64,000 bases of DNA from Candidatus Woesearchaeota archaeon (GCA_964639615.1 CAZXHH010000002.1:8290-72289), one strand, 5' to 3'; numbered from the stretch's first letter, positions 12,158 through 64,000 are shown. The notes: generated by a model not told the origin, from the letters alone. Numbers and translations: made by a program.

Positions 12158-13519
12158 ATGAGAAAAACAAAGTCACTTTTAAATGACAAAATAAAGAGCG
12201 TAAAAAATACTCTAGCAGGTTTAGCTATGACTGGACTTGGATTAATTGTTGCTTCACAAGATGTTGATGCACAAAAAACAAAATTTCCAGAAAATCAAGA
12301 TCATGGTGCTGCATTCTATAAAGGAAAAACAAATTCAGTTTACAGCTTAGAAGAAAAAGTATTTTATAATGCAATAACTGGAAAAGAAGAAAGATTCTAT
12401 ATGCAATATGTTGATAAGAATAAATATGCTAATGATTTAGATATTGTTGCTCTTGATTTCTATAAAACTATTCCAAAAATGAATCTTCAAACTGGAAAAG
12501 TTGGAGAATTAAGATCAGAAGATGGAAGTTATTATTTTACACCAGAAAAATTAGCAGATGGTAAAGAAGCTAATTCTATAGTTATAGAAAATTTGCACAT
12601 TGCAGATTGGTGTGATGATCAGATAAGAGAAAGAGCAGGTGTTGAAAAAGGAATAAATTATATTTCAATAACTGATATGGAAAAATTACTTCCAGAACAA
12701 GAAAGATTAAGATTAGGGGATAACAGAAAATTCATAGTCCTTACAGTTCCTAAAGAACTTCAAGTAAAAGGAAAAACAAATTACTATTTAGTTCCAGTTG
12801 ATGCAGAACACGAAATTGGATTCAATCCTGTAACTAAGAAACTTACACTCTATGGAAAAGTATACAGAGGAAATTTAGATGAAACACCAGTAAAAGTTGA
12901 TGCAAAGACAGGTGTTGCTTCTCCTATTGGAACTAATTTAAACAGAGATGAATCTTTTCAAGAATCAAAATCAGATAGTGCAGAAGTAAAACAACCAAAA
13001 GAAAAGAAACCGTCTAAATTATCTTTAATAGTAGGTGGAGAAGGAGATGGTAATGCTTTTTGGACAGGAGAATTAGGAGTTCAATACGGACCTATTGCTA
13101 TTGTAGGAGACATGGGTAAAGGAGCAAATGAATATTTTGCAAAAGACATAACAACAACTGCTTCACCAATAACAGGAAGATACGGATATGGAAGAACAGA
13201 TATTACTGATGTTAAAGTTAAAGGTGCTAAAGCAGAAGTTCATATACTTAATGATAAGGCAATTTCTCCTTTTGCTGCATTTGGATTAAATAATTATAAT
13301 TACAATGTAAAAGATACTGAAGAAATATTAGATGCTAACGGAAATATTGTAAAGCAAAATGTTAATACAAGAACAGATTCAGAAAATTCTATGCAAGGAG
13401 TTGTTGGAACAAACATAAGACTTGGAAAAAACGGAAAAACAAAATTAAGAGTAGAAGCAGGATATGATACTAAAGCTAAATTCTTCGGAGGAGCAGGCTT
13501 TTCTTTTGACATAAATTAA
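12158..13519 (+). CDS. Secreted protein with signal peptide (453 aa)
   Basis: N-terminal signal peptide (LAGLAMTGLGLIVASQDVDAQ). The C-terminal third is Gly-rich and predicted beta-rich (GAGFSFDIN). Confidence 0.5.
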   Translation: MRKTKSLLNDKIKSVKNTLAGLAMTGLGLIVASQDVDAQKTKFPENQDHGAAFYKGKTNSVYSLEEKVFYNAITGKEERFYMQYVDKNKYANDLDIVALDFYKTIPKMNLQTGKVGELRSEDGSYYFTPEKLADGKEANSIVIENLHIADWCDDQIRERAGVEKGINYISITDMEKLLPEQERLRLGDNRKFIVLTVPKELQVKGKTNYYLVPVDAEHEIGFNPVTKKLTLYGKVYRGNLDETPVKVDAKTGVASPIGTNLNRDESFQESKSDSAEVKQPKEKKPSKLSLIVGGEGDGNAFWTGELGVQYGPIAIVGDMGKGANEYFAKDITTTASPITGRYGYGRTDITDVKVKGAKAEVHILNDKAISPFAAFGLNNYNYNVKDTEEILDANGNIVKQNVNTRTDSENSMQGVVGTNIRLGKNGKTKLRVEAGYDTKAKFFGGAGFSFDIN

Positions 13520-13520
13520 A

Positions 13521-15173
13521 ATGAACACTCTTAAACTATTACCTATATTAATATTAAGCATGTTTTTAATTAGCACTGCAAGTGCTGTAGCTGTTTATGG
13601 TGATTGGCAAGGTTCAACTCAAGATGCAACAATCACAGATGGACAAAACATAATGTTTAATACAGATTTTATCTCTGTAAATCCACCTATAACACTTAGT
13701 ATTAAATTATATGATTCTTCATCAAATTTAATTTATTCTTTTGAAAACTCAAAAGTTGTAAATAATTACAGTTTCTTCAATTCATACGAACTTACTGATG
13801 CAATTTATAAAAATCCAGGAAACTATGAAATAGTATTAACTGCTTCAGACAAATATTATTCTGACTCACACACATTAAACTTAAAGGTAAATGATGTTGT
13901 AACAGTAGATACAACTGCTCCTGTAATAACACTTGTTGGAGCAAGTACAATAAATTTAACTTTAGGAACAGCATACACAGAACTTGGAGTAACTGCTACA
14001 GACAATGTTGATGGAGATGTAACAGGAAAAATAGTTATTACAAATCCAGTTAATGTTTTTGCTGTAGGAACTTACACTGTAAGATACAATGTAAAAGATA
14101 GTGCTGGAAATTCTGCTACAGAAGTTACAAGAACAGTTAATGTTTTAGCTGCTGGAACAGATACAACTGCACCAGTTATAACAATTATAGGTGCAAATCC
14201 AATGACTCTTACTTTAGGAACAGCTTATATTGAAGATGGAGCAACTGCTACAGATAATGTTGATGGAGATATAACAGGTCAGATAACAATTACAAATTCT
14301 GTAAATATTTATGCTATAGGAACTTATACTGTTTTATATTCTGTTACAGATAAAGCAGGAAATAAAGGAAATGCTACAAGAATAGTTAATGTTGTTGCTG
14401 GAAACACTACAACTGATACAACTGCTCCTGTAATAACACTTTTAGGAACTAATCCAATAAGTATTGCTCTTGGAAGCACATATGTTGATGCTGGAGCTAC
14501 AGCATTTGATAATTTTGATGGAGATATAACAAGCAAAATTATAGTTGTAAACACTGTAGATACAAGCGCTGTTGGAACTTATGTTATAACTTATAATGTT
14601 AAAGATAATGCAGGAAACAGTGCAACTGAAGTTACAAGAACTGTTGGAGTATACAATCCAACTGATACAACTGCTCCTGTAATTCAAGTAATTTCTCCTA
14701 TTTCAAATAAAAAATACACTACTACTAATTTAGTATTTGAAGTGTTAGTTGATGAAATTGCAGAAGTTCAATTTAGCTTAGATGGAGGAAATAAAACTTC
14801 AATGGACTTTGTTGGAATGTCTGGAACAAAATTAAAATTCACATATAATGCTACACTTACTAAGAGTGCACACACAATAGTATTTTATGCAACAGATACT
14901 GCTGGAAACAATGCAACTAAAACAGTAAGTTTCTCAATGGATACATCAAAATCAACTAGCGGAACTAAGACAAGTTCTAAAGTTATTACAAATAATGACG
15001 ATGAAACTGAATATTTAAAACAATTTGAGAAAAAACAAGTTATCTACTTAGAACAAGATGAAAATACTTCAACAGAAAAAACTAGCGGGCAAAAACTATT
15101 AAACTGGTTAATAGGAATATTAATTGTAATAGTTGTTCTTTTAATTCTTGCTCTTATAAGCTTAAGAAGATAA
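13521..15173 (+). CDS. Surface protein with four tandem Ig-like (DUF5011-type) domains and a C-terminal TM anchor
   Basis: Signal peptide, then four ~80 aa repeats of the form TTAPVITL.G...LTLGTAY.E.GATATDNVDGDITG.I.ITN.V....GTYTV.Y.V.D.AGN.AT..TR.VNV. C-terminal helix GILIVIVVLLILALISL followed by RR. Confidence 0.6.
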   Translation: MNTLKLLPILILSMFLISTASAVAVYGDWQGSTQDATITDGQNIMFNTDFISVNPPITLSIKLYDSSSNLIYSFENSKVVNNYSFFNSYELTDAIYKNPGNYEIVLTASDKYYSDSHTLNLKVNDVVTVDTTAPVITLVGASTINLTLGTAYTELGVTATDNVDGDVTGKIVITNPVNVFAVGTYTVRYNVKDSAGNSATEVTRTVNVLAAGTDTTAPVITIIGANPMTLTLGTAYIEDGATATDNVDGDITGQITITNSVNIYAIGTYTVLYSVTDKAGNKGNATRIVNVVAGNTTTDTTAPVITLLGTNPISIALGSTYVDAGATAFDNFDGDITSKIIVVNTVDTSAVGTYVITYNVKDNAGNSATEVTRTVGVYNPTDTTAPVIQVISPISNKKYTTTNLVFEVLVDEIAEVQFSLDGGNKTSMDFVGMSGTKLKFTYNATLTKSAHTIVFYATDTAGNNATKTVSFSMDTSKSTSGTKTSSKVITNNDDETEYLKQFEKKQVIYLEQDENTSTEKTSGQKLLNWLIGILIVIVVLLILALISLRR

Positions 15174-21425: not shown

Positions 21426-23312
21426 ATGCCAGAAAAAAGTTATACAGCTGAAGATATTAAAGTATTGGAAGGCTTAGAAGGAGTCAGAAAAAGGCCTGCA
21501 ATGTATATTGGTTCTACAGGTAAAGATGGTTTACACCATCTAGTTTATGAGGTAGTAGACAACTCCGTTGATGAAGCTCTAGGAGGATTTTGTTCAAAAA
21601 TAACAGTCACACTAAATAAAGACGGTTCAGTTACAGTGGATGATGATGGAAGAGGTATTCCAGTAGACATTCATCCCCAATTAAAAATTCCTGCTGTTCA
21701 AGTTGCACTTACAAAATTGCATGCAGGGGGAAAATTTGATAAAAAATCTTATCAGATTTCTGGAGGTTTACACGGAGTAGGTGTTTCTTGTGTAAATGCT
21801 CTATCAAAAAAATTTATTGTTGAAGTAAAAAGAGATGGAAAAATACACCAGCAAGAATATTCGAGAGGGGATCCTCAAACAAAATTAAAAGTAATCGGAA
21901 ATTCTGAAAAGACTGGAACAAAAATTACATTCTGGCCAGATGAACAAATATTCTCAACAACAACTTTTGATTTCAAAGTTCTTGAAACAAGATTTAGGGA
22001 AATAACTTTCTTAAATGCAGGATTAAAAATTGAATTAATAGATAATATGAAGGAAACAAGTCAGGAATTTTTCTCTTCAGGAGGATTAATTGAGTTCGTA
22101 AAATGGATAAACAAATCAAAAGAGGTTCTACACAAACCAATTTACTTCAAAAGAGAGATGGAAAATGGGGCAATTGAAATTTCAATTCAGTATAATTCAA
22201 GCTATCAAGATAATATTTTTGGTTTTGTAAATACAATTAACACTGTTGAAGGTGGAACTCATATCTCTGGTTTCAAGACAGCACTAACAAGAGTAATTAA
22301 TGATTATGCAAAGAAAAAAGAATTGTTAAAAAACGATACTTTTTCTGGAGACGATGTAAGAGAAGGTTTAACAGCAATAGTAAGTGTAAAACTTGCAGAA
22401 CCCCAATTTGAAGGACAAACTAAAACAAAATTAGGTAATTCTGAAATTAAAGGATTTGTTGATTCAATTGTAACCTCTGCACTAACAGAATATTTTGAAG
22501 AAAATCCTCAGATAGCAAAAAAAATTGCTGAAAAATCTTTAGAAGCTGCTAAAGCTAGACTTGCTGCAAAAAAAGCTAAAGAATTAGTAAGAAGAAAAAA
22601 TGCATTCTCACTTGGAGGATTACCTGGAAAACTTGCAGATTGCTCTGATAAAAAATCAGAAGATACAGAATTATATTTAGTAGAAGGGGAATCAGCTGGA
22701 GGCAGTGCAAAAATGGCAAGAAACAAAGAAATGCAAGCTATTCTTCCTCTTAGAGGTAAAATCCTTAATGTTGAAAAAGCAAATCCATCAAAAGCTCTTT
22801 CAAGTGAAGAAATTACAAATATGATTACAGTTATAGGAACTGGAGTTGGAGAACAATTTGATTCTGAAAAAATAAGATATGGAAAAATAGTAATGATGAC
22901 TGATGCTGATGTAGATGGAGAACACATCAAAACTCTTTTATTGACTTTCTTTTTCAGATTTATGCCACAGCTAATAGAAAAAGGACACATTTATGCTGCT
23001 ATGCCTCCATTATATAGAATAAGAAAAGGCCAAAAAGATATTTATGTTTACAGTGATGAAGAATTAAAAAAAACTACTGCTGAATTAGGGGTTACTGAAG
23101 GGGGAGTTACACGTTTCAAAGGTTTAGGAGAGATGAATTCTACTCAGCTATGGGAAACTACTATGAATCCTAAAACAAGAAAGATTAAGAGAATATTTAT
23201 TGAAGATGCAATTGAAGCAGACAGAATGTTTGCAATGTTAATGGGAGACGATGTCCAAGCAAGAAAAGATTTTATTCAAGAAAATGCAAAGGAAGCTAAT
23301 TTAGATGTTTAA
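21426..23312 (+). CDS. gyrB: DNA gyrase subunit B
   Basis: GHKL ATPase motifs (HHLVYEVVDNSVDEA, GLHGVGVS), the Toprim motif EGESAGGSAK and the C-terminal gyrB tail. Confidence 0.95.
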   Translation: MPEKSYTAEDIKVLEGLEGVRKRPAMYIGSTGKDGLHHLVYEVVDNSVDEALGGFCSKITVTLNKDGSVTVDDDGRGIPVDIHPQLKIPAVQVALTKLHAGGKFDKKSYQISGGLHGVGVSCVNALSKKFIVEVKRDGKIHQQEYSRGDPQTKLKVIGNSEKTGTKITFWPDEQIFSTTTFDFKVLETRFREITFLNAGLKIELIDNMKETSQEFFSSGGLIEFVKWINKSKEVLHKPIYFKREMENGAIEISIQYNSSYQDNIFGFVNTINTVEGGTHISGFKTALTRVINDYAKKKELLKNDTFSGDDVREGLTAIVSVKLAEPQFEGQTKTKLGNSEIKGFVDSIVTSALTEYFEENPQIAKKIAEKSLEAAKARLAAKKAKELVRRKNAFSLGGLPGKLADCSDKKSEDTELYLVEGESAGGSAKMARNKEMQAILPLRGKILNVEKANPSKALSSEEITNMITVIGTGVGEQFDSEKIRYGKIVMMTDADVDGEHIKTLLLTFFFRFMPQLIEKGHIYAAMPPLYRIRKGQKDIYVYSDEELKKTTAELGVTEGGVTRFKGLGEMNSTQLWETTMNPKTRKIKRIFIEDAIEADRMFAMLMGDDVQARKDFIQENAKEANLDV

Positions 23313-23898
23313 AATGTTACCAGAAAGTTTTTTTGAAAAATTGAAAGAGAAAGTAAAAAAAGAAGTTGGAGAAAAAGGAAGTCATGACATGGGTCATATT
23401 GAAAGAGTTTACAAATTATCAATTTTAATTTCTAAAGATTTAAACGTAGATATGGATGTGATAAGAGCAGCTGCACTTTTCCATGACATTGCAAAACATA
23501 AAGAAAAGAAAAAAAAGAAGGATCATGCAATGATGGGTGCAAAAGAAGCACTAAAAATTTTGAAAAGAACTGAATTCCCAAAAGAAAAACTAAAGATAGT
23601 AGAAAAATGCATTTTACTTCATAATAAATCTGAAGACATTCCAGAATTAAAAGAAGTTAGAGTATTAAAAGAAGCAGACGGATTAGAATCTATGGGAGCA
23701 ATAGGCATTGCAAGACATTTTGCATATAATGGGGATGAAGAAGATTGGAATAATTCAAACGTGTTAAATGAACTAACAAGAAACTTAAACTTAAATTACT
23801 TTAAGTTACCTATAGCAAAAGAATATGCACAAAGAAGAATTGCAATTACACAATCTTTTTGCACTGAATTTAAGAAGGAGTTTAATTTAACAATATAA
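23305..23898 (+). CDS. HD-domain phosphohydrolase
   Basis: H...HD motif (GHIERV..., AALFHDIAKH). Overlaps the gyrB stop by 8 nt. Confidence 0.7.
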   Translation: MFKMLPESFFEKLKEKVKKEVGEKGSHDMGHIERVYKLSILISKDLNVDMDVIRAAALFHDIAKHKEKKKKKDHAMMGAKEALKILKRTEFPKEKLKIVEKCILLHNKSEDIPELKEVRVLKEADGLESMGAIGIARHFAYNGDEEDWNNSNVLNELTRNLNLNYFKLPIAKEYAQRRIAITQSFCTEFKKEFNLTI

Positions 23899-23899
23899 A

Positions 23900-24223
23900 A
23901 TGGCAAAAAAAGGAAAATTATCAACACCAGAATGGATTTTAGAAGGTTATGATAGCCCAGCAGAATATGCAAAAGCACATGGTGAAAAAGCTCCAGCTGA
24001 AAAAGAAAAAGGAAAAACATTCAAAATAAAGATATGTCCAAAATGTGGAAGTTACGATGTTGCAATTAAATTAAGCAATATGGACTTTGAAGAAGAAAGC
24101 AATACAGGAAAGCAGTGGGAATGTAAAAAATGCAAATGGGTTGGAGAAACTGTAAAAGAAAAGGCACTTAGTGAAGATGATTTCATGAAATATTTAGATG
24201 AAAAAGGGGAGGAAGTTGCATAA
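23900..24223 (+). CDS. Cys4 zinc-ribbon protein (107 aa)
   Basis: CPKCGSY...CKKCKW. Starts 2 nt after the HD gene's stop. Confidence 0.5.
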   Translation: MAKKGKLSTPEWILEGYDSPAEYAKAHGEKAPAEKEKGKTFKIKICPKCGSYDVAIKLSNMDFEEESNTGKQWECKKCKWVGETVKEKALSEDDFMKYLDEKGEEVA

Positions 24224-24528
24224 TGCCAAAAGCACCAATAGAATTTGAATATGTAGATGATGATTCTGATGATGAAGAATTAGAGGAAGATGAAAACGAA
24301 GAATCAGATGTAGAAGTAGAAACAACTTCAGAAGAATACGAACAAATTGAATTTTCTATATCAGATGAAGAAATTGATGAATGGATAAATGAGTTAAAGA
24401 AATTAAAAAGAGAAAAAGAGCCTGTTCACTTACATGTTGGAGAAGATTTAGTATTAAAAATAGATTATTTTGACGAAGATGAAGAATCTGATGATGAGGA
24501 AGAAGACGAAGAGGAGGATGAAGATTAA
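24223..24528 (+). CDS. Extremely acidic protein (101 aa, about half D/E)
   Basis: Its start overlaps the previous stop (ATAATG). It ends 1 nt before the gyrA ATG. Contains long D/E runs. Confidence 0.5.
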   Translation: MPKAPIEFEYVDDDSDDEELEEDENEESDVEVETTSEEYEQIEFSISDEEIDEWINELKKLKREKEPVHLHVGEDLVLKIDYFDEDEESDDEEEDEEEDED

Positions 24529-26967
24529 ATGACACCAAATATTGACCCAAAAGTTGAAGAAGATTTGAAAAAAGGAATTATCCCAACAGAAGTTTCTGAA
24601 GAAATGAAAAAATCTTATCTTGATTATGCAATGAGTGTTATTGTTTCAAGAGCTATTCCTGCAATTGAAGATGGTATGAAACCAGTTCAAAGAAGAATTT
24701 TGTATTCGATGCATCAAATGGGATTAAAACCAAATACTCCTACAAAAAAATCAGCAAGAATTGTCGGAGATGTTATTGGTAAATACCACCCTCACGGAGA
24801 TGTTGCAGTTTATGATGCAATGGTAAGAATGGCTCAAGATTTCTCTTTAAGATATCCTTTAGTTTATGGTCAGGGTAACTTTGGTTCAATAGATGGAGAC
24901 CCTCCAGCTGCTTACAGATATACAGAAGCTAAGCTAATGCCAATTACTCAAGAGTTAATTGAAGATTTAGAAAAAGAAACAGTTGACTTTGTTCCTAATT
25001 TTGATAATTCATTAAAAGAACCTGAATTACTTCCAGGAAAACTTCCTGCATTAATGTTAAACGGTGCATCGGGTATAGCTGTAGGTATGGCAACAAATAT
25101 TCCCCCACATAATCTTGTAGAAGTATGTGATGCAATTAATGCTTATATAAAAAATCCAGAAATAACATTCGAACAAATAGTTGAAATAATTACTGGCCCA
25201 GATTTTCCAACTGGGGGAAGTGTTCAAGGAGACATGCTTGAATTGTATAAAACTGGAAGAGGAAGATTGGTAATGAGAGGTAAAACCTCTACTGAAACAG
25301 TAAAGAACAGAGAAGCTGTTGTTATAACTGAAATTCCATATATGTTAAATAAATCTATGTTAGTTGAACAGATTGCACAATTAGTTTCTGAAAAGAAGAT
25401 AAAAGATGTTTCCGATTTAAGAGATGAATCTTCTAAAGGAAAAACAAGAATTGTTCTTGAATTAAAAAAAGAAGGAGATCCTAAATTCATAATCAATTCA
25501 TTATACAAATACACAAGACTTCAGGATTCTTTCAATGTTAATTTTTTAGCTCTAGAAAATGGAAGTCCTAAAGTAATGAATATCAAAGAAGTTCTTGATG
25601 CTTATGTAAGATACAGAAAAACAATTATTACAAAGAGAACTAAATTTGAATTAAAGAAAGCAAAAGAAAGACAAGAAATTGTTGAAGGATTATTAATTGC
25701 ATTGAAAGACATTGACGGAGTTATTAATTTAATTAAAAAATCAAAGACTGCTGCTGAAGCTTCAGAAGCATTGATGAATAAGTACAAATTATCAAAAAAA
25801 CAGACTCAAGCAATTCTAGAAACTAAATTACAGCAATTAACTTCACTAGAAGTTGAAAAATTAAAGAATGAAGCAATTGAATTAAAAGAAAAAATAAAGG
25901 AACTTGAGATAATTCTTGGAGATATTAAAGAAGTTCTTAAGATAATTACAAAAGAAGTAAACGAAATAAAGAAGGAATATGGTGATGAAAGAAAAACTCA
26001 AATATTAAAGAGCATTAAAGAAATTAAAGAAAAGGACTTGATACAGGAAAAAGATGTAGTAATTACAATAACTGATAAAGGTTATTGTAAAAGAATGGAT
26101 GTTCAGGCTTACAAAGAACAAAATAGAGGGGGAAGAGGAGTAATTGGAAGTGATTTGGCTACAGGAGACTTTGTAAATCAATTAATAACTTGCTCAACAC
26201 ACGATTATCTAATGTTCTTCACAAGCAGAGGAAGAGTTTTATGGCTTAAAGCATACGACATTCCTGTTGCAGAAAGATACAGTAAAGGAAAAGCATTAAT
26301 CAATTTACTTGGATTAAAAGATGAAAAGATAACAAATGTAATTTCAGTTAAGAATTTTGAAGATGGATTATTCATGGCAACAAAGAAAGGAGTTGTCAAG
26401 AAAACGCCTTTAAGCAACTTCTCTAATCCAAGAGCATCTGGAATAAGAGCACTTAATTTACCAAATGATAATTCGGACTTCTTAATTGGAGTTGAAGTAG
26501 TAAAGAAAGGACAAGAAGTTCTTTTGGCTACAAAGCACGGTAAAGCAATTAGATTCAATTCAGATGATGTAAGAGATATGGGAAGATCAAGTTATGGTGT
26601 TACAGGGATGAAATTAGATGCAGGAGATGAAGTTGTAAGCCTTGAAATTTTAGATACTCCAGCAATTTTAACAATAACTGAAAAAGGATACGGTAAAAGA
26701 ACTGAAGTTCAGGATTACAGAAAAACAGCAAGAGCAGGTAAAGGAGTAATTAATGTAAAGATAGGAGATAAAACAGGAAATGTTGTTACAACTGTTTCAG
26801 TTAATGATAAGGACAATATAATTATTACAACAGCTAAGGGAATGGTAATAAGAACTTCTCTTGAAAGTATTAGAGTAATGGGACGTTCAGCACAGGGAGT
26901 TAGAATTGTAAAGCTCCATGAAGGAGATTACGTAACAGATTTAGTAAGAGTAGTTGAAGAGATTTAA
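24529..26967 (+). CDS. gyrA: DNA gyrase subunit A
   Basis: Context around the catalytic Tyr ([10 protein letters not shown]), the GyrA box-like region and C-terminal beta-pinwheel repeats. 812 aa. Confidence 0.95.
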
Positions 26968-26994: not shown

Positions 26995-28908
26995 TTAGAT
27001 ATCTATTTTTTCATCTTCTAACTTTTTTAAAATGTACTTATGAAGACCTTCTTTTTTCACAGCACCAACATCAATAAGATGTTTTAATCCAAATTTCCAA
27101 CCTTCATTTTTTATTTTTAATTCTCTTACTTTATTCTTGTGTACAGCCCACTCCAAGTCAATTAAATTCCACATTTCATTATTTAATTTATTGCCATCTA
27201 TATGATGTATTTCATTTTTCTTTGGGGTATCTGGAAATTTTTCTAAGTATAATTTTCTATGATAAGCTTTATCAGAATTATTCCAAACAATATAACCATC
27301 ATTATTTATATGTGCTCTTCCTTCTCCACAATAATTTTTTATTGCTAACTCCTCATTTCTTTTTTGTTCTCTTTCAATCTCATCATTTATTTGCTTTAAA
27401 GAATCTGCTTCATCTTTTCTCTTTTTTAATTCTTCAATTTCTATATTCTTTTCTATGATTAATCTATGAAATTTATCTTCATCAATCAAAAAAGCATTCT
27501 CTAAATCTCTTATTCTATCTTGATATTCATCCTTCCTCTTTTCTATTTCTTTATTAATCCTAATCTCTGCTTCTTTATTTGCTTTCTTTTTTTTGTCTTC
27601 TAACTTTTTAATTTCAAGATTTTCTTTTTCTTTCAATTTTTCTAAGTGTATATCAAACTCTTTTTGTTTATCAGAAAAATTCTTTTTTAAACGTTCTTTC
27701 ATCTTCTTTAAATTATTAATTTCTTCTGAGTTTTCTTTTATCTCATTGTTCAAGCTTTCCTTCTCTTTTTTTGCTTCATCCCTCTTTTTTTCTTCACCTT
27801 TCCTTTCTTCAATTGTTGTCCACAACTTATACTTTCCAAAATATAATAGACTAATTAAAAAAATAATAAAAACAAAAACCCAAAAGTAAGTCATTTGTTT
27901 AATACTTGGTTTACAAACTCCCTCTTTTCCTCTCCCAGTCTTACACTCTTGAATACAAAAATATTCTTGCCCTGCTTTCTTCGAAGAAACATTTCTACAT
28001 ATTCCTTCACAAGGCATTGTTCCATTAACGCACTCCCAATTACAAGAATAAGGTTGCCCATCATTTTTAATTGAAGGAAGTAAACAAGAATTATTGCATA
28101 TTTGTTCTCCATTTAAACAACTACCATTCCAATCTCCACAAATTCGTGCAGGATTACAATCTCCAAAAGCACAATCATCATCTATTGAGCAAGGCAAACC
28201 ATTTTTTAGAGCACATACCCCGAAAACATTTTTATAACCAGTACTACATTCTTCAATCCTACATATAGGAGTCTCTCCTAAATTTTTTGAATTTACAATA
28301 ACGCACCTAGTATTATCTGGACATTGAAGTTCATTTTGAGGACAATTACAATTATTCTTATAGCATTTATCTGTTTTTGAACAATTACCTCTTACACAGT
28401 GTTCTCCCCCACATTGCAATGAATCATTACAAGCTTCACCATCATTTAGACAAGTATAATTTCCACATATCTTACAAGTATAATTGTCAATACTAGTCAA
28501 TTCTTTTTTAGCTTCCAAAAATGGAGGGCTATTGACAACAAAATAAATGCTTGATGAATCTAGTCCAGGAGTTGAAGTATCTGAAACAGTACAATATCCA
28601 TTTGGAGAGATAATCGGACAATCAAAAGAATGAAGTGCCCCATAAAATAAATATTTTACAGTTACATTAATATCTAAAGTATATCTGTTGTATACTTTGA
28701 AAGACATAGGATTTGAACTAAAAAAACCAGTACTCCCTTGAATAATATCTCTAATTTCTAAAGCATCATAATCTAGTTTTGAATTATTTTCATAAAAAAG
28801 ATTTCTATATTCTTCATATTGATTATTATCTTTATACTGACAATCCAAAGAATATACCGAATTACATAAAATTATAGAAAAGAATAAAAGAAATGCCCAT
28901 TTCTTCAT
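26995..28908 (-). CDS. Single-pass membrane protein: signal peptide, Cys-rich glycosylated ectodomain, TM, long cytoplasmic coiled coil, C-terminal HNH nuclease domain
   Basis: Signal peptide MKKWAFLLFFSIILCNSVYS. About 60 Cys residues in CxC/CxxC arrays with many N-x-S/T sequons. TM helix YFWVFVFIIFLISLLYF followed by a basic stretch. ~170 aa K/E heptad region. C-terminal motif EIHHIDGNKLNNEMWNLIDLEWAVH (HNH). Confidence 0.6.
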   Translation of the reverse strand: MKKWAFLLFFSIILCNSVYSLDCQYKDNNQYEEYRNLFYENNSKLDYDALEIRDIIQGSTGFFSSNPMSFKVYNRYTLDINVTVKYLFYGALHSFDCPIISPNGYCTVSDTSTPGLDSSSIYFVVNSPPFLEAKKELTSIDNYTCKICGNYTCLNDGEACNDSLQCGGEHCVRGNCSKTDKCYKNNCNCPQNELQCPDNTRCVIVNSKNLGETPICRIEECSTGYKNVFGVCALKNGLPCSIDDDCAFGDCNPARICGDWNGSCLNGEQICNNSCLLPSIKNDGQPYSCNWECVNGTMPCEGICRNVSSKKAGQEYFCIQECKTGRGKEGVCKPSIKQMTYFWVFVFIIFLISLLYFGKYKLWTTIEERKGEEKKRDEAKKEKESLNNEIKENSEEINNLKKMKERLKKNFSDKQKEFDIHLEKLKEKENLEIKKLEDKKKKANKEAEIRINKEIEKRKDEYQDRIRDLENAFLIDEDKFHRLIIEKNIEIEELKKRKDEADSLKQINDEIEREQKRNEELAIKNYCGEGRAHINNDGYIVWNNSDKAYHRKLYLEKFPDTPKKNEIHHIDGNKLNNEMWNLIDLEWAVHKNKVRELKIKNEGWKFGLKHLIDVGAVKKEGLHKYILKKLEDEKIDI

Positions 28909-57612: not shown

Positions 57613-58518
57613 ATGAACATGAAATCATTTTTTGCAATACTATTCTTTATATTAGTATTATTTTTGCTAATTTTTTACTGGTTTGTCCCTTATAATTCAA
57701 TAAATTTAGGTTCTTCATCAAATTCAAACTTTACAATGAATAGCTCAATAAATGAAAGCTTACAATTCTATCCAAATATGAGATTTGCTGAAAAAGATAT
57801 CTCTTATCAAATAGAGAATTGCCCCTTACAAAGAAAAAATGATATGGAACAAGCATTTGCATTAATAGAAAACAATACAGAGCTAGATTTCTCTCCTACA
57901 ATTAGCAAACCAGAAATAATTGTAACTTGTGATGAAAAAACCAAAATTGAAGGAAACCTCTTTATAGCAGGTGAAGGTGGACCAACAAACATTACAGTTG
58001 CAGGAACATTTAATGTTATTGAAAGTGGAAAAATACTTCTTCTTGACAATTCAAAATGTGAAAGACCAAATGTTGCAATACACGAATTACTTCATGTACT
58101 TGGATTTACGCACTCAAAAAACCCAAATAATATTATGTATGAAATAAGTGAATGTCAACAGACAATAGGAGAGGATATAGTAATTTTCCTTAATGAAATA
58201 TATTCCATTCCAAGTGAACCAGATTTAGTATTTGAAAATGCTTCTGCTTTCTTGCATGGAAAATACTTGGATGTAAACTTCACCCTAAGAAATGATGGAT
58301 TGAGAGATTCTGGAAAATCTATTGTTAAATTATACGTCGATAATAAAGTAATTAAAGAAATTTCAATACCTGAAGTTCAAATTGGATATGGAAGGAAGAT
58401 AAGCTTAGCAAATTTATGGGTTCCTCAAGTCAATATTGAAGAAATAAAATTTGTAATAGAAAATGATTTCTCTGAACTGGATAAAGCAAACAATGAAGTT
58501 TCTCTTAAAGTAAAATAA
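57613..58518 (+). CDS. Secreted zinc metalloprotease (metzincin-type HExxHxxGxxH)
   Basis: N-terminal TM/signal anchor. Motif HELLHVLGFTHS. Confidence 0.6.
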   Translation: MNMKSFFAILFFILVLFLLIFYWFVPYNSINLGSSSNSNFTMNSSINESLQFYPNMRFAEKDISYQIENCPLQRKNDMEQAFALIENNTELDFSPTISKPEIIVTCDEKTKIEGNLFIAGEGGPTNITVAGTFNVIESGKILLLDNSKCERPNVAIHELLHVLGFTHSKNPNNIMYEISECQQTIGEDIVIFLNEIYSIPSEPDLVFENASAFLHGKYLDVNFTLRNDGLRDSGKSIVKLYVDNKVIKEISIPEVQIGYGRKISLANLWVPQVNIEEIKFVIENDFSELDKANNEVSLKVK

Positions 58519-59723: not shown

Positions 59724-59882
59724 TCCCTCCACCAAGAATCGAACTTGGGATCTCTCGGGTTCTGCTTTAATCAGATTCCTTAAGGAATGGCTTATCACGT
59801 TTCATCCTGTCCATATAGAATGGAATGTCCACGCTAGATAATTTTCTACAGCCAAGCGCTCTAGCCACTGAGCTATGGAGGG
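59724..59882 (-). tRNA. tRNA-Tyr (anticodon GTA) containing an ~86 nt intron at the canonical 37/38 position
   Basis: Exon 1 is CCCTCCATAGCTCAGTGGCTAGAGCGCTTGGCTGTAG. Exon 2 is ACCCGAGAGATCCCAAGTTCGATTCTTGGTGGAGGGA. The anticodon stem CTTGG/CCGAG forms only after the intron is removed. T-loop TTCGATT. Confidence 0.7.
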
Positions 59883-59940: not shown

Positions 59941-61899
59941 CTAATCTGCCTTCCAAGAAGCATACAAAGGTCCAATAATCTCCTTGCCTGAGTCTGTTAT
60001 GCTTACAGGATAAATCTCTATTTTAAGCAATTTTCCTTCAAGCTTTCCTGTCAAATCAAAATTATAATTGACTGTTACAAGCTGATTATTCAGTCTGTCT
60101 ACTCTTTCAATATAAGAAGAAGTAGAATTTGAAAATTTAATCATGATGTGATTAACATTAGTAATTGCTGTTGAAGAACTTGTAATAGCATTTACAACCT
60201 GCTGATAAATTTCAATTAAAGAGCTTATATTTATAGCAGAATAATAATTTCCTTCTCCACATATAGAAATATTTTTCAAAGCTTCTTCATTTACAAGTTC
60301 TCCTGCTCCAATAGCATGAACAACTAAATCCCCTAAAAGAGTTACAGCATCGCAAGCAGATTGAGTTGCATCTGTAATTGCATCGCCTGTATTTTGTTCT
60401 GGACACTCCTGCCCAGCTTCTCCATCACTCATCACAATAATCTTTTTTGATTTCTCTTCACTCGATTGCAAATCTAATTTATCTGCAGCCTCATTTATTC
60501 CGCAACAAATACAAGTTCCAGTATAGGGTTGCCAAGCATCAATTGTTTGATTTAACAATGCTCCATTGTTTGTTAAGTCTACACTTTCGGAATCTAAAAA
60601 GCTAGTGCTATATGCAACTAAACCTACCCTATTTTGATTTGATGCACTTAGAAGAGAGACTGCCATCTGTTTGTTTGCTTCTTTTGTAGGAGTTAACATA
60701 TCTACCCAACTTGCATTCTTATAAAAAACAACAGGTGTAGAATAGCCTGCTGTTGAAAGTCCAGAGATAATTGTAGAATTTGCATTCCATCTATTTTGAG
60801 AAACACTCCAGACATATCCATTAAATGCAGAACTTAATTCTCCTGAAATCATATATAAGGAAGAATCTTTGTAAAAAACATAAGGAGTTGACCTATCTCC
60901 AATATCTACTAAATTACTTACAATAGTTGAATTAACAATCCAATTTGTCCCATTCCAAATAAATCCATTAAATGTTCCAGCACTATTTCCTGAAATTAAA
61001 TATAAATTTGCACCTTTGTAAAATACTGTTGGTGCAGAATTGCTTCCTATATCAGGTAAAGAAGCATTAACTGTGAAATTAATTTCCCAATGATCAAGAT
61101 TCCAGCTAAATCCATTAAATGTTCCTGCACTATTTCCTGAGATCAAATATAAATTTGCACCTTTGTAAAATATAGCAGGTGTAGAATAATCTCCTACATC
61201 TGGAAGAGAAGCATTTATTATTGAATCAGGGACCCAATTTAAAAAATCCCAAATATATCCATTAAAATTACCTGTAGACTCTCCAGACAATAAATATAAA
61301 GAATTATTCTTATAAAAAACAGCAGGTGCTGAATTAGAACCAATATCTGCTAGGTTAGTTGTTATTCCCGAATTTGAAGCCCAAGTAGTATCAAAACTAA
61401 ATCCATTAAACAAACCACTACTTCTTCCTCTTATTAAATACCAGCTTCCAGAACATCCTGGAGCAGAAAGACAATTTGTTCCTTGATCAGTATCTGCACC
61501 ATAACCTATTCTATTATCAGAATTATAACTTGTTCCATGAATTATATTTGTACGACAACTACTCGATACACCAATACACTGAGTCATGCTACCAGATAAA
61601 TCTACAACAGAATAAACATCTGTTGGAACAACTTCAGTTATGATAGTAATATTTTTCTTTTGTGTTACATTAACTTTCTCGCCTTCAATTTTTATTAGAG
61701 AGATATTAACCAAAGGCTCATTAATTCTAACAGACATTTCGACTCTCTCATTAAAAAATTCTTTTCTCAAAGCAACTCCTTCAGATTGACTGATTATTAA
61801 ATTTTTAACAACAACCCAAATTATCATGATTGCAATGAAAGTTAACATTATAATTAGAAGAGTTGCTATTATTGACGACATTCCCCTCTTTTTTATCAT
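59941..61899 (-). CDS. Pilin-like (class III signal peptide) adhesin with ~49 aa tandem repeats and a C-terminal vWA domain
   Basis: N-terminus MIKKRGMSSIIATLLIIMLTFIAIMIIWVVV (basic residues, then Gly, then a hydrophobic stretch). At least five repeats of (S/A)(T/A)P.VFYK...LY.ISG.S.G.FNG. vWA motifs VGLVAYST and IIVMSDGEA. Confidence 0.6.
   Translation of the reverse strand: MIKKRGMSSIIATLLIIMLTFIAIMIIWVVVKNLIISQSEGVALRKEFFNERVEMSVRINEPLVNISLIKIEGEKVNVTQKKNITIITEVVPTDVYSVVDLSGSMTQCIGVSSSCRTNIIHGTSYNSDNRIGYGADTDQGTNCLSAPGCSGSWYLIRGRSSGLFNGFSFDTTWASNSGITTNLADIGSNSAPAVFYKNNSLYLLSGESTGNFNGYIWDFLNWVPDSIINASLPDVGDYSTPAIFYKGANLYLISGNSAGTFNGFSWNLDHWEINFTVNASLPDIGSNSAPTVFYKGANLYLISGNSAGTFNGFIWNGTNWIVNSTIVSNLVDIGDRSTPYVFYKDSSLYMISGELSSAFNGYVWSVSQNRWNANSTIISGLSTAGYSTPVVFYKNASWVDMLTPTKEANKQMAVSLLSASNQNRVGLVAYSTSFLDSESVDLTNNGALLNQTIDAWQPYTGTCICCGINEAADKLDLQSSEEKSKKIIVMSDGEAGQECPEQNTGDAITDATQSACDAVTLLGDLVVHAIGAGELVNEEALKNISICGEGNYYSAINISSLIEIYQQVVNAITSSSTAITNVNHIMIKFSNSTSSYIERVDRLNNQLVTVNYNFDLTGKLEGKLLKIEIYPVSITDSGKEIIGPLYASWKAD
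60965..61025. repeat. ~60 nt near-identical direct repeat, copy 1 (copy 2 at 61111-61172), period ~147 nt
   Basis: ccattaaatgttcc(a/t)gcactatttcctga(a/g)at(t/c)aaatataaatttgcacctttgtaaaata occurs twice within the adhesin gene. Confidence 0.8.
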
Positions 61900-62115
61900 A
61901 AACTATTAAGGAAATACGAATATATTAAGTTTATCTTTGTAGAATTAATTATTCTCCTTACACCAAAGTATAGAGTTTCCTGAGAAATGTTAAATTAGCA
62001 TAATAAAATTCTATCGATTATTATAGTGTCAAATATATTGAGCAACTAATATCAATATGACAAACCACTGTTATAGATAACTAATTCATTCTGAAGAACG
62101 CAAATTTATTTTAAT

Positions 62116-63507
62116 CTAATTATTCTCTTCTTCTAAATCTCTTCTTGTTCTAGGTTCAAGCATGAAGAAAGCCTGATTTGAATGAGCTTCTTTTACTTTT
62201 CCTTCTCTTTCATAAACTGCAGTTGTAGAAGGCAAAGCAAACTTACCTAAAACTCCAATCTTTGAATAAATTATATATGAGAAAACTCTTCTTTCTCCTG
62301 GTTGCATTCTTTCAAAATTCCATTCAATTCTTCTGTTCTTTTCATCTATTCTTGAAGGTCTTTCTCCTCCAAACTTCTCGTGTACTTTTGCAATAAATGG
62401 AAGTCTATCAATTACACTTATTTTTTCTATGAAATTCTTAGCTTCAACTAAAACCATAACCTTAAGTGCAAATTCTCCACCTTTAGCATTAACAAACATT
62501 ACTTTCTTCTTTAATACAATATTTCTATTTGAAGTTAATTTAACAACAATTACAACTAATACAATCAATAAGATAATTGCAAAAGGGAGTATCCAATTAG
62601 TTCTAACAGTTATTGTTAATGCCTCTCCAGGAGGGATTTCATTAGACCAAGTATAGTATACTAAAAAGCCATTTCTTTCAACAGTATTTGGCTCTGGGCT
62701 AAAATGAGTGAATAGTCTTGAAACAACATTTTTTCTAATAACAGTTTCTGTCTTTGCAAGCACATTTCCTTCATTCACTTTTTCAATTACATTTGTATTT
62801 ATTATAACTCCATAAGTCTTTTTATTTGTTGTAAGAATATCTTTTTCTGTAAACTTAAGTGTGCCTTCAAGATTTCCATTTAAGCCTTTAGCCTCAACAT
62901 CTGCATGGAAAGTATAATATCCTGCCATCAATTTTTTGAAATCATCTTTATTAAGAGTTATTGAAAAATCATTTCTCTGGTTTGGACCTAAACTAAATTC
63001 TTTTTCAAAATCAAAAAATGCAGAAGTAAAATGAACATTTACATTTTCAAAGTTATAATTTACTTTATTATGAATATATACTGTAAGTGTTGTTGAATCT
63101 GGGTCAAACTCAGCAGAGCCTATTTCAAATGCATCTGCAAAATTTAAAATATCTAATGTTAAGGGGTTTTGAATTGAATCTCCTTCAGAATCTCTTATAA
63201 AATAATCAAAAGTATAATATCCTGCTTTAATTTTTTCAGGAGGATAGATTTCAAGAGCAATATCTTTTGTTTCTCTTGTATTTAATAAAACAGCTCCTTT
63301 AGGATTTAAATCCTGACTAAAATAGCTATAAAAGAAAATATTTTGTTCTGAACCTTTATTAGTAACTTCTAAATTAAAAACTGCAGGGTCATCTAATCCA
63401 ATAATATAAACCTCATTAGAACTCTTTTTTTCAACATTAATATTTAATGCGAACATGAACGGCATTACTAAAATCAATGCTGCAAATAATACAAACACCT
63501 TTTTCAT
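62116..63507 (-). CDS. Surface protein: signal peptide, large ectodomain, one TM, ~120 aa cytoplasmic domain
   Basis: Signal peptide VFVLFAALILVMPFMFA. TM helix ILPFAIILLIVLVVIVV followed by KLTSNR. Confidence 0.5.
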   Translation of the reverse strand: MKKVFVLFAALILVMPFMFALNINVEKKSSNEVYIIGLDDPAVFNLEVTNKGSEQNIFFYSYFSQDLNPKGAVLLNTRETKDIALEIYPPEKIKAGYYTFDYFIRDSEGDSIQNPLTLDILNFADAFEIGSAEFDPDSTTLTVYIHNKVNYNFENVNVHFTSAFFDFEKEFSLGPNQRNDFSITLNKDDFKKLMAGYYTFHADVEAKGLNGNLEGTLKFTEKDILTTNKKTYGVIINTNVIEKVNEGNVLAKTETVIRKNVVSRLFTHFSPEPNTVERNGFLVYYTWSNEIPPGEALTITVRTNWILPFAIILLIVLVVIVVKLTSNRNIVLKKKVMFVNAKGGEFALKVMVLVEAKNFIEKISVIDRLPFIAKVHEKFGGERPSRIDEKNRRIEWNFERMQPGERRVFSYIIYSKIGVLGKFALPSTTAVYEREGKVKEAHSNQAFFMLEPRTRRDLEEENN

Positions 63508-63556: not shown

Positions 63557-63946
63557 TTATTTCTTTCCCTCTAAATCCAAGAATGCCTTAGCTTGTCCAA
63601 GGAATTCATTGCAATCAGAAACAAGTTTTCCTTCATATTCTTTTATTCTAGAGACAATAACCCACTTTTCATAAATCCCTCTCATAAATTTCTGAGTAGA
63701 AGTTTTTTCAAATTTACCGTCATAATCTCTAATTAAAGTACCTTTAATTGCAACTTCGATACTTCCTTTATTCATCTTTATTTTTTTGTTATCTTTTGTA
63801 ATCTCAACATTAGTTAAACCTAAAACTTCAAACTTAACATCCACCTGGAATTTGAAATAATCAGTTACTTTTCTTCCACCACTCCATTCAACTTTTATAT
63901 TCTTTGCATCTCCCGATATTTTCTCTGCATATTTGTTTTCAATCAT
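63557..63946 (-). CDS. Hypothetical protein (129 aa)
   Basis: ORF only. Confidence 0.4.
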   Translation of the reverse strand: MIENKYAEKISGDAKNIKVEWSGGRKVTDYFKFQVDVKFEVLGLTNVEITKDNKKIKMNKGSIEVAIKGTLIRDYDGKFEKTSTQKFMRGIYEKWVIVSRIKEYEGKLVSDCNEFLGQAKAFLDLEGKK

Positions 63947-64000
63947 ATCAAACCCTGCTTCTTCTGCAAGCCACTGATAACAGAATTTGTAAAAACTCTT

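Follow-up and report, generated by a model that had tools for sequence, protein, structure and literature searches.

The stretch of DNA considered here comprises 64,000 nucleotides (nt) of Candidatus Woesearchaeota archaeon (GCA_964639615.1 CAZXHH010000002.1:8290-72289), and we refer to this whole 64-kb stretch as the window. Its G+C content is about 30% throughout, and its nearest relatives are metagenome-assembled genomes (MAGs) labelled Pacearchaeota, Woesearchaeota or Nanoarchaeota. Between positions 59724 and 63507 lie three features, all on the minus strand: an open reading frame (ORF) of 463 amino acids (aa), an ORF of 652 aa and a gene for tRNA-Tyr. Our subject is the 652-aa gene (59941..61899, minus strand, from the ORF listing), whose predicted product is a pilin-like protein with a class III signal and a nested von Willebrand factor A (vWA) domain and beta-propeller. 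Residue numbers refer to this protein throughout. On balance, we favour the view that this protein, from a Pacearchaeota-like DPANN archaeon, is a surface adhesin of modular, type IV pilin-like design with three nested modules.

The ORF is real: positions 59941..61899 of the minus strand encode 652 aa. The gene occurs with 100% nucleotide identity in two independent Logan assemblies (L007 and L008), and the copy on the ENA contig L001 is 98% nucleotide-identical, with 38 scattered substitutions, nine amino-acid changes and an unchanged length. All four independent assemblies (the window, L001, L007 and L008) encode the same 652 aa with all five propeller blades, and the gene is therefore not an assembly artefact. 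A first reading made from the sequence alone (hereafter the sequence-only reading) had proposed comparing repeat copy number; across these four sources, blade number was constant.

Pilin-type N-terminus and divided head domain

The protein begins with a basic leader, MIKKRG, and a long hydrophobic helix, alpha1, which together occupy aa 1-48 (61756..61899, minus strand). This assignment comes from the TIGR02537 profile and from AlphaFold2, in whose model the N-terminal helix spans aa 7-48 (42 residues). MIKKRG|MSSIIATLLIIMLTFIAIMIIWVVV matches TIGR02537 (arch_flag_Nterm, the NCBIfam archaellin/type IV pilin N-terminal domain) across aa 4-31 with a score of 22.7 bits against a cutoff of 20 (E 5e-5), and cleavage is predicted after Gly6 of the leader. 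A class III-type leader is a short basic segment ending in Gly or Ala and followed by at least about 20 hydrophobic residues, and KKRG|MSSIIATLL is of this kind. The N-terminal segment (aa 5-39) is also the sole hydrophobic segment of the protein. Further, the residues around the predicted cleavage site are conserved across homologues as [KR][GA]|[LM]S (-2 K/R, -1 G/A, +1 L/M, +2 S). Such a constraint has the look of a class III signal peptidase site and would not be required by a plain anchor. With a profile match above cutoff and a motif kept across homologues, the class III (type IV pilin-like) signal described in the sequence-only reading holds up, although the evidence for it is good rather than conclusive because the profile is short and the margin small.

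Helix alpha1 is followed by one half of a predicted pilin-head beta-sandwich, consisting of two strands (aa 52-60 and 63-72) and a linker (aa 49-88; 61636..61755, minus strand), colinear with the head of the protein P0047. The other half lies at the opposite end of the protein, where C-terminal beta strands (aa 580-652; 59944..60162, minus strand; strands within aa 584-650) align with P0047, P0062 and P0003 and would complete the sandwich. These three proteins are propeller-bearing pilins that have no vWA domain, and in them a contiguous beta domain of about 100 aa follows helix alpha1 and ends in '...KISITPIFMRDSGKELIG'. The query's C-terminal 'KIEIYPVSITDSGKEIIG' aligns with the 'KISITPIFMRDSGKELIG' that closes their head domain. 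When aa 1-88 are joined directly to aa 575-652, the two halves align with P0047 aa 7-141 as one colinear BLASTP segment (33% identity, E 1e-15). From this colinear alignment we conclude that the architecture is a pilin head containing a vWA domain, which in turn contains a Cys-rich loop and the propeller. This three-level nesting is well supported by sequence comparison and structure prediction together. The sequence-only reading had laid the domains out in series and so missed the nested topology.

The vWA domain and the insert in its MIDAS loop

A vWA domain is present, as had been supposed, and passes the profile search with PF00092 (35.7 bits against a gathering score of 23.8). The match at aa 406-566 covers profile positions 21-173 only. 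The missing portion, strand beta1 with its DxSxS motif, lies upstream of the repeats at aa 93-105 ('VYSVVDLSGSM'; 61585..61623, minus strand). In silico deletion of aa 106-400 raises the PF00092 score from 35.7 to 49.5 bits and extends the match from profile positions 21-173 to 1-173; the beta1 segment also gives a weak Integrin_beta match. The rest of the domain, helices alpha1 to alpha6, occupies aa 401-573 (60181..60699, minus strand) and is modelled with a predicted local distance difference test (pLDDT) score above 90. Consequently, the earlier statement that the protein ends in a vWA domain is right about the domain and wrong about its position, since beta1 and DxSxS precede the repeats and a beta domain of about 80 aa follows the vWA domain.

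The metal ion-dependent adhesion site (MIDAS) of a vWA domain is made up of DxSxS, a Thr and an Asp. In a 40-sequence alignment, D100, S102, S104, T462 and D492 are invariant, as are several cysteines, and the predicted MIDAS is therefore complete; T462 and D492 were assigned to it by their position in the fold, not from a structure. An intact MIDAS is in this sense well supported by sequence conservation. Directly after DxSxS, in the beta1-alpha1 loop, come a Cys-rich subdomain and then the propeller. The Cys-rich loop (aa 106-151; 61447..61584, minus strand; pLDDT 85-91) carries cysteines at positions 108, 115, 143 and 149 and is found in most of the homologues of about 400 aa. In the vWA fold, the beta1-alpha1 loop holds the DxSxS residues and lies on the ligand-binding face. 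From this topology, the insert would therefore be placed at the binding face of the vWA domain. The whole protein contains ten Cys residues, as well as 15 N-X-S/T sequons against 10.9 +/- 2.8 in shuffled sequences, an enrichment that is not significant.

A membrane anchor combined with a vWA domain also recalls BatA/BatB-like or MoxR-associated vWA proteins, in which a transmembrane (TM) anchor and a vWA domain serve complex assembly or stress tolerance. The protein has a weak match to NCBIfam VWA_BatA_Lepto (E 0.0018), and Foldseek finds the BatB structures 3ibs and 4jdu. The family match is, however, far below cutoff (NF047508, 17.3 bits against 380), the neighbourhoods examined contain neither MoxR nor DUF58 genes, and the N-terminus is of pilin type. 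The ten cysteines fit an extracellular location, with which the lectin-like propeller insert agrees, and extracellular display of the protein is well supported. We therefore regard a Bat- or MoxR-type function as highly improbable.

The insert itself, 249 residues between 'CSGSW' and 'VDML', contains five units with a period of 147 nt or 49 aa (aa 152-400; 60700..61446, minus strand), in agreement with the earlier count of at least five repeats of about 49 aa. Repeat finding, an AlphaFold2 model of the insert and Foldseek together identify these units as a closed five-bladed beta-propeller. Modelled alone from 51 sequences (pLDDT 92.1, predicted TM-score (pTM) 0.88), the insert forms four full four-stranded blades, and its first three strands join its last strand to make up a fifth, giving the closed ring of four-stranded blades that characterises a beta-propeller. 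Because the fifth blade is contributed by both termini, the ends of the insert would be adjacent, as a loop-nested domain requires. Foldseek matches the insert with probability 1.0 to the fucose lectins RSL, AAL and AFL, to LGI1 EPTP and to five-bladed GH43 enzymes, and also finds the fucose lectin SapL1 and the PHL/PLL lectins. No sequence match was obtained in Pfam, in NCBIfam or in the PDB, the last searched with both the single sequence and a 51-sequence profile. Given a generic fold match and no sequence relative in these searches, the propeller probably belongs to a family not yet described. From the model, one may reasonably guess at a role as a lectin.

The repeats had been described as including two that are about 95% identical in nucleotide sequence and hence recently duplicated. 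That degree of identity applies to a 60-nt core encoding FYKGANLYLISGNSAGTFNGF, which is 95% identical between two central units. Over their whole length, the most alike units (aa 240-288 and 289-337) share 65% protein identity and 71% DNA identity in the same register, or 78% in the Tandem Repeats Finder register, and the claim of recent duplication is not supported. Blades resemble one another more within a protein than between orthologues: they are 69-71% identical within the orthologue P0002 and up to 61% within the query, the latter overlapping the 40-61% found between the two proteins. This greater likeness within each protein points to recombination or conversion inside the gene, and not to a single recent duplication.

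P0002, from an NCBI Pacearchaeota MAG (8.7-kb contig), is the sole orthologue with the propeller insert, and it has three blades only, which could reflect either a collapsed repeat in the assembly or an oligomeric propeller. Three blades are too few to close a propeller alone, and misassembly is common in repeats, so one might ask whether the repeat insertion is itself a chimera or artefact of assembly. This is scarcely credible: the window, L001, L007 and L008 encode identical lengths, the substitutions in L001 are scattered, the reading frame is unbroken and the insert is modelled at pLDDT 92.

A search with a hidden Markov model of the blades shows that dozens of DPANN proteins carry the propeller module, each with one or two discrete copies measuring 230-270 aa; some ten of these proteins have pilin-type 'KGLSTIVATLL' N-termini. 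By exhaustive phmmer search, the propeller family has 384 representatives in 1.84 billion proteins. Several candidate family assignments were rejected. Pfam PF19624 (DUF6129) scored 25.7 bits on the insert as a whole-sequence sum with no single stretch passing, and was treated as a repeat-summed chance match; WYL, BACON and Coatomer matches in propeller proteins were all sub-threshold. When vWA-pilins and propeller proteins were aligned together (A1), the repeats were misaligned onto the vWA domain, and separate alignments (A2 and A3) were used for the two structure predictions.

Relatives, known adhesins and neighbouring genes

The closest relatives of the protein form a DPANN family of about 400 aa that shares its N-terminus, split pilin head, Cys-rich loop, MIDAS and C-terminal strands, with 38-52% identity outside the insert, but that lacks the 249-aa propeller. 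In about 50 such homologues (363-424 aa), beta1 and DxSxS are followed by a Cys-rich loop of about 45 aa ending in C-G-x-W, and then at once by 'VDRL...', the start of helix alpha1. Members from Pacearchaeota, Woesearchaeota and Nanoarchaeota MAGs are also annotated as 'VWA domain-containing protein' or 'flagellin-like protein' (for example P0010 and P0022). This is the direct parent family of the query. Its genes often occur as tandem pairs, whereas the query's genome has a single long gene. The propeller insert is known only in the query's lineage and in P0002.

Among 78 loci from GTDB species representatives (best GTDB match 51% identical), the distance between DxSxS and a TCICCG motif ranges widely. 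It is 67-70 residues in proteins with no loop, 110-125 with a Cys-rich loop, 215-256 at three loci (L034, L059 and L062, one gene each) and 362 in the query. The propeller insert was found in none of the GTDB representatives surveyed. The distribution of lengths shows that the MIDAS loop, between beta1 and alpha1, is an insertion hotspot in the DPANN pilin-vWA family.

The long loops differ in content. At L034, in a Woesearchaeota-labelled MAG, tandem pilin-vWA paralogues (L034:6809-8494 and L034:9956-11815) have an F5_F8_type_C_2 insert in the same beta1-alpha1 loop; these inserts score 26.6 bits (E 9.5e-6) and 17.0 bits (E 0.009) against this NedA-like galactose-binding family, both below its gathering score of 27.8. 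The paralogue with the 26.6-bit insert has no exact TCICCG, and so no spacing value, and its Pilin_N match is sub-threshold. At L059:8507-11350 and L062:1703-4627, DPANN vWA proteins of about 950 aa have a MIDAS loop grown into an extremely Cys-rich knot of about 150 aa. A second DPANN family of about 850 aa (L031-L088; for example P0084, P0102 and P0108) carries a Cys-loop vWA domain mid-protein between large flanking domains, and another class III-type signal may be present in its N-terminus, K[KR]G|YYFSxDALIAL.

Among characterised proteins, the full AlphaFold2 model finds by Foldseek PilB of S. sanguinis (7b7p), the pilus tip adhesin SpaC (6m3y) and ANTXR vWA domains. Together with the curated N-terminal profile, the conserved motif and the complete MIDAS, the matches to PilB and SpaC favour the description of the protein as a pilin-like vWA adhesin, which the sequence-only reading had already put forward. 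PilB (Foldseek E 1.8e-8) likewise joins a pilin module with an N-terminus of class III type to a vWA domain with a MIDAS, which is used for adhesion in PilB and only predicted here. Modular pilins and the vWA module of PilB have been described (PMC8179133), and both proteins fit the principle by which a pilin bears a grafted effector module, one that is probably displayed at the tip of the filament. A modular pilin is defined as a pilin module with at least one domain that is not pilus-specific (Raynaud et al. 2021), and the query joins a pilin N-terminus and head to a vWA domain and a propeller. PilB differs in being bacterial, with the N-methylation motif IPR012902, and in having its vWA domain appended C-terminally through a short linker rather than nested in the pilin sheet. 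Its MIDAS loop also contains neither a propeller nor a Cys-rich insert, and at the sequence level the relation shown between the two proteins is confined to the vWA fold. The published census of modular pilins was based on the bacterial motif IPR012902, and its main text nowhere uses the word 'archaea' (PMC8179133).

Other systems share parts of the design. A vWA domain and a beta-propeller also occur together in the PilY1/PilC tip adhesins of bacterial type IVa pili, which have been linked to surface sensing and to adhesion by pili (PMC9210963, PMC8179133). PilY1, however, does not belong to the pilins, and its domains stand in tandem, with the vWA domain N-terminal and a propeller of family IPR008707 C-terminal. 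The query has no Pfam match to this family (Neisseria_PilC) at E values up to 1. The PilY1 propeller is seven-bladed and has a Ca site. Integrin alpha chains with an inserted I (vWA) domain also nest a MIDAS-bearing vWA domain and a propeller in one polypeptide to form a ligand-binding head, but there the vWA domain is inserted into the propeller, whereas in the query the propeller is inserted into the vWA domain. The comparison with integrins is one of topology, and homology was considered only through the weak Integrin_beta match of the beta1 segment.

The AAL/RSL/AFL fucose lectins and PLL/PHL lectins are, beside LGI1 EPTP, among the best Foldseek matches of the insert (TM-score 0.5-0.58). 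AAL/RSL-type lectins share with it blades of about 45-50 aa and a strand motif resembling W-x-G-x-x-W, as judged by eye against the RSL sequence. They differ in having six or seven blades rather than five and in sharing at most 16% identity with the insert, and five-bladed GH43 enzymes match about equally well. Searches of Pfam (Fungal_lectin and relatives), NCBIfam and the PDB gave no sequence match that would place the insert in the AAL/RSL fucose-lectin family. TadG of the Tad/Flp pili is also a vWA protein with an N-terminal pseudopilin-like hydrophobic segment and an association with type IV filaments (PMC4858521). It is set apart by description, being bacterial, encoded within the tad operon and devoid of a propeller.

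On the other side of the vWA gene from the 463-aa ORF, the tRNA-Tyr(GTA) gene (59724..59882, minus strand) has an 86-nt intron in the anticodon loop. A default ARAGORN run missed this gene, which was recovered by Rfam (RF00005, 49 bits) and by ARAGORN with its intron option. The intron-containing tRNA-Tyr of the sequence-only reading is thus real, but the order given there, with the vWA gene downstream of it, is not: the tRNA lies 58 nt 3' of the stop codon, on the same strand.

Upstream, the 463-aa ORF (62116..63507, minus strand) is, from the ORF listing and its sequence features, a protein with a signal peptide, a beta-rich ectodomain of about 280 aa, a TM helix (about aa 305-327) and a C-terminal domain of about 130 aa. 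Its N-terminus is signal-peptide-like, it contains no Cys and no N-X-S/T sequon, and it has no family match in Pfam or NCBIfam and none in the PDB. The vWA gene does therefore adjoin a TM-anchored surface protein, as had been noted. Beyond it lies the 3' part of a 167-aa gene (63557..64000, minus strand), cut by the window end, whose full product is seen in L001, L003, L009 and L010; this soluble protein has no family match, and its PDB matches are at chance level (E 0.11 or worse). The 167-aa gene precedes the 463-aa gene wherever gene calls are intact (L001, L003, L007, L009 and L010). At L006:7958-9829, on a long ENA contig, the two genes are split into six short ORFs, probably through a frameshift error of long-read assembly.

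Adjacency of this kind led the sequence-only reading to propose that the vWA protein and its 463-aa neighbour form a dedicated two-component attachment apparatus. The two genes do adjoin on the same strand in the window, L001, L003, L007 and L008, and in L003 the gap between them is just 36 nt. In the window, however, the gap is 216 nt, and more distant vWA-pilin genes (L002 and L005) have other neighbours. The 463-aa family has more than 1,390 DPANN homologues of near-constant length and 53-78% identity, as against about 50 vWA-pilins, and is paired with the 167-aa gene instead. In L009 (7455-9383) and L010 (7437-9383), the 167-aa and approximately 460-aa pair is followed directly by a gene for an M10/CARDB protease with no vWA gene, while closer relatives have one or two vWA-pilin genes between the pair and the protease gene. 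Since the pair abuts the protease gene with no vWA gene in distant genomes, the vWA gene is a lineage-specific occupant of the site between them. The pair, judging by its conservation, looks as though it serves a core function. The 463-aa protein thus belongs to a separate and far more widespread pair and is not an obligate partner, and a shared attachment apparatus seems to us improbable.

The protease gene itself lies at 57613-58518 on the plus strand of the window and encodes a metalloprotease of M10/astacin-like type that is secreted and has a CARDB domain; in most neighbourhoods examined, it adjoins the locus on the opposite strand. Elsewhere in the window, 26995-28908 (minus strand) encodes a 637-aa protein with the unusual pairing of a signal-peptide-like N-terminus and a C-terminal HNH_3 endonuclease domain. 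Two adjoining surface-type proteins are encoded at 12158-15173 (plus strand), the first of 453 aa, with no family match, and the second of 550 aa, with Bact_surface_Ig-like, HYR, PKD and Big_13 domains. Candidate gyrB and gyrA ORFs, with three small ORFs (197, 107 and 101 aa) between them, occupy 21426-26967 (plus strand); these labels rest on N-terminal sequences read by eye, and no search was made.

Filament subunit, tethered receptor and ligand specificity

Genomic association with a type IV filament (TFF) assembly ATPase and platform protein was not seen at the loci examined, and precomputed Pfam annotations of nine neighbourhoods contained no TFF ATPase or platform gene. Several other observations weigh against an adhesin built on a pilin. 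The window yielded no gene for a prepilin peptidase, a pilus ATPase or a platform protein when ten large ORFs were searched with Pfam and the remaining ORFs in the list were inspected by eye. Neither a PilB/FlaI Walker A motif (GxTGSGKT[TS]) nor an A24 peptidase motif (regular expression 'G[GAS][GA]D[VAILM]K') was found within 10 kb of the 78 family loci (1.4 Mb), a weak negative given the crude expressions used. The window's ORFs include no second class III-type N-terminus, and class III signals are also used by archaeal surface proteins that do not form filaments. TIGR02537 has only 33 positions and its cutoff was exceeded by only 2.7 bits, and Pfam Pilin_N (PF07790) does not match the query and reaches one paralogue only with a sub-threshold score. 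How the domains are oriented to one another is uncertain (full-model pTM 0.56). The likeness of the propeller to lectins is at the level of a generic fold (TM-score 0.5-0.59, identity at most 16%, five blades and not six). Its repeat consensus offers no Arg/Glu equivalent to fucose-binding residues when compared with the RSL sequence by eye rather than by a computed alignment. Finally, a preprint by He et al. reports type IV pilus components to be missing in DPANN (10.1101/2020.05.14.094862).

The main rival reading is a membrane-anchored surface receptor or adhesin that never polymerises, its helix, cleaved or not, only tethering the head. Such a protein would resemble the class III-signal substrate-binding proteins of the Sulfolobus bindosome type, or would have a plain signal anchor. 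The gene stands alone, with no pilus machinery seen in the window or within 10 kb of the 78 loci, neighbourhoods differ between genomes, and a bulky 65-kDa head is hard to pack into a filament. Makarova et al. further note that substrate-binding proteins, which are not pilins, are also among the substrates of the prepilin peptidase PibD, and that an A24 peptidase is missing from two nanoarchaea with a secretion ATPase (PMC4858521). Yet the [KR][GA]|[LM]S motif and the TIGR02537 match are unexpected for a plain anchor, and the same N-terminus and head domain recur across a paralogous family of pilin-like proteins. Stand-alone pilin genes are common in archaea, so that linkage to the machinery is not obligatory (PMC4858521). 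Type IV pilus loci are also reported in Pacearchaeota: Hamm et al. describe two conserved loci in several DPANN lineages, Pacearchaeota included (PMC11291902), and a survey from 2026 assigns to DPANN the TFF system 1, 4A and Aap-like systems (10.64898/2026.04.22.720090). We consequently hold a receptor that is only tethered to be a serious possibility but a rather unlikely one.

If the protein is instead a modular pilin-like adhesin, as we prefer to think, its route to the surface would begin with a class III signal (prepilin) peptidase that removes the MIKKRG leader. Helix alpha1 (aa 7-48) would then serve as the protein's anchor, either within the membrane or within a type IV filament's core. 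Because the head is about 65 kDa, the protein would probably be a rare subunit or one at the tip, as has been proposed for bacterial modular pilins. By sequence and model, this head is an immunoglobulin-like beta-sandwich, contiguous in related pilins, into which the vWA domain has been inserted after the second strand. The MIDAS (D100, S102, S104, T462 and D492) presumably holds a divalent cation and, by way of it, an acidic side chain on a ligand protein. The disulfide-rich loop and the closed five-bladed propeller sit directly after DxSxS, in the loop expected on the ligand-binding face. The propeller's most likely contribution is a further binding site, probably one for glycans, or a gate over the metal site, and ligand specificity would change in either case.

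Relatives offer several variants of the same loop: no insert, a Cys-rich loop alone, larger Cys knots and a galactose-binding-like domain. The propeller, for its part, is a mobile module that also occurs in other DPANN proteins with class III signals. We speculate, with considerable reservation, that the beta1-alpha1 loop is a cassette hotspot in which lectin-like modules have been nested independently, a propeller here and a galactose-binding-like domain elsewhere, to give triple-nested adhesins of pilin, vWA domain and lectin. A composite metal-plus-glycan site might then set the host or surface specificity of episymbiotic Pacearchaeota, with blade number (three versus five) tuned by intragenic recombination.

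DPANN archaea such as Pacearchaeota have a minimal metabolism and are thought to be host-attached, and the molecules that mediate contact are largely unknown. He et al. describe Pacearchaeota as strongly host-attached and enriched in the host-attached size fraction (10.1101/2020.05.14.094862). The literature is, however, divided on type IV pili in Pacearchaeota and other DPANN (PMC11291902 versus 10.1101/2020.05.14.094862). The locus provides a concrete and expressible candidate for host contact, a role that is plausible for this protein: it combines a pilin-type anchor, a predicted complete metal-dependent adhesion site and, on the binding face, a propeller without known relatives. It also extends to archaea the modular pilin principle, which has so far been surveyed in bacteria alone. 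The protein is a variant of that known principle, as represented by PilB of S. sanguinis, and is new in its nesting, an unusual double arrangement in which a propeller lies inside a vWA domain, the reverse of the integrin order. The variable insert at one loop among its relatives suggests a simple evolutionary route to altered ligand specificity.

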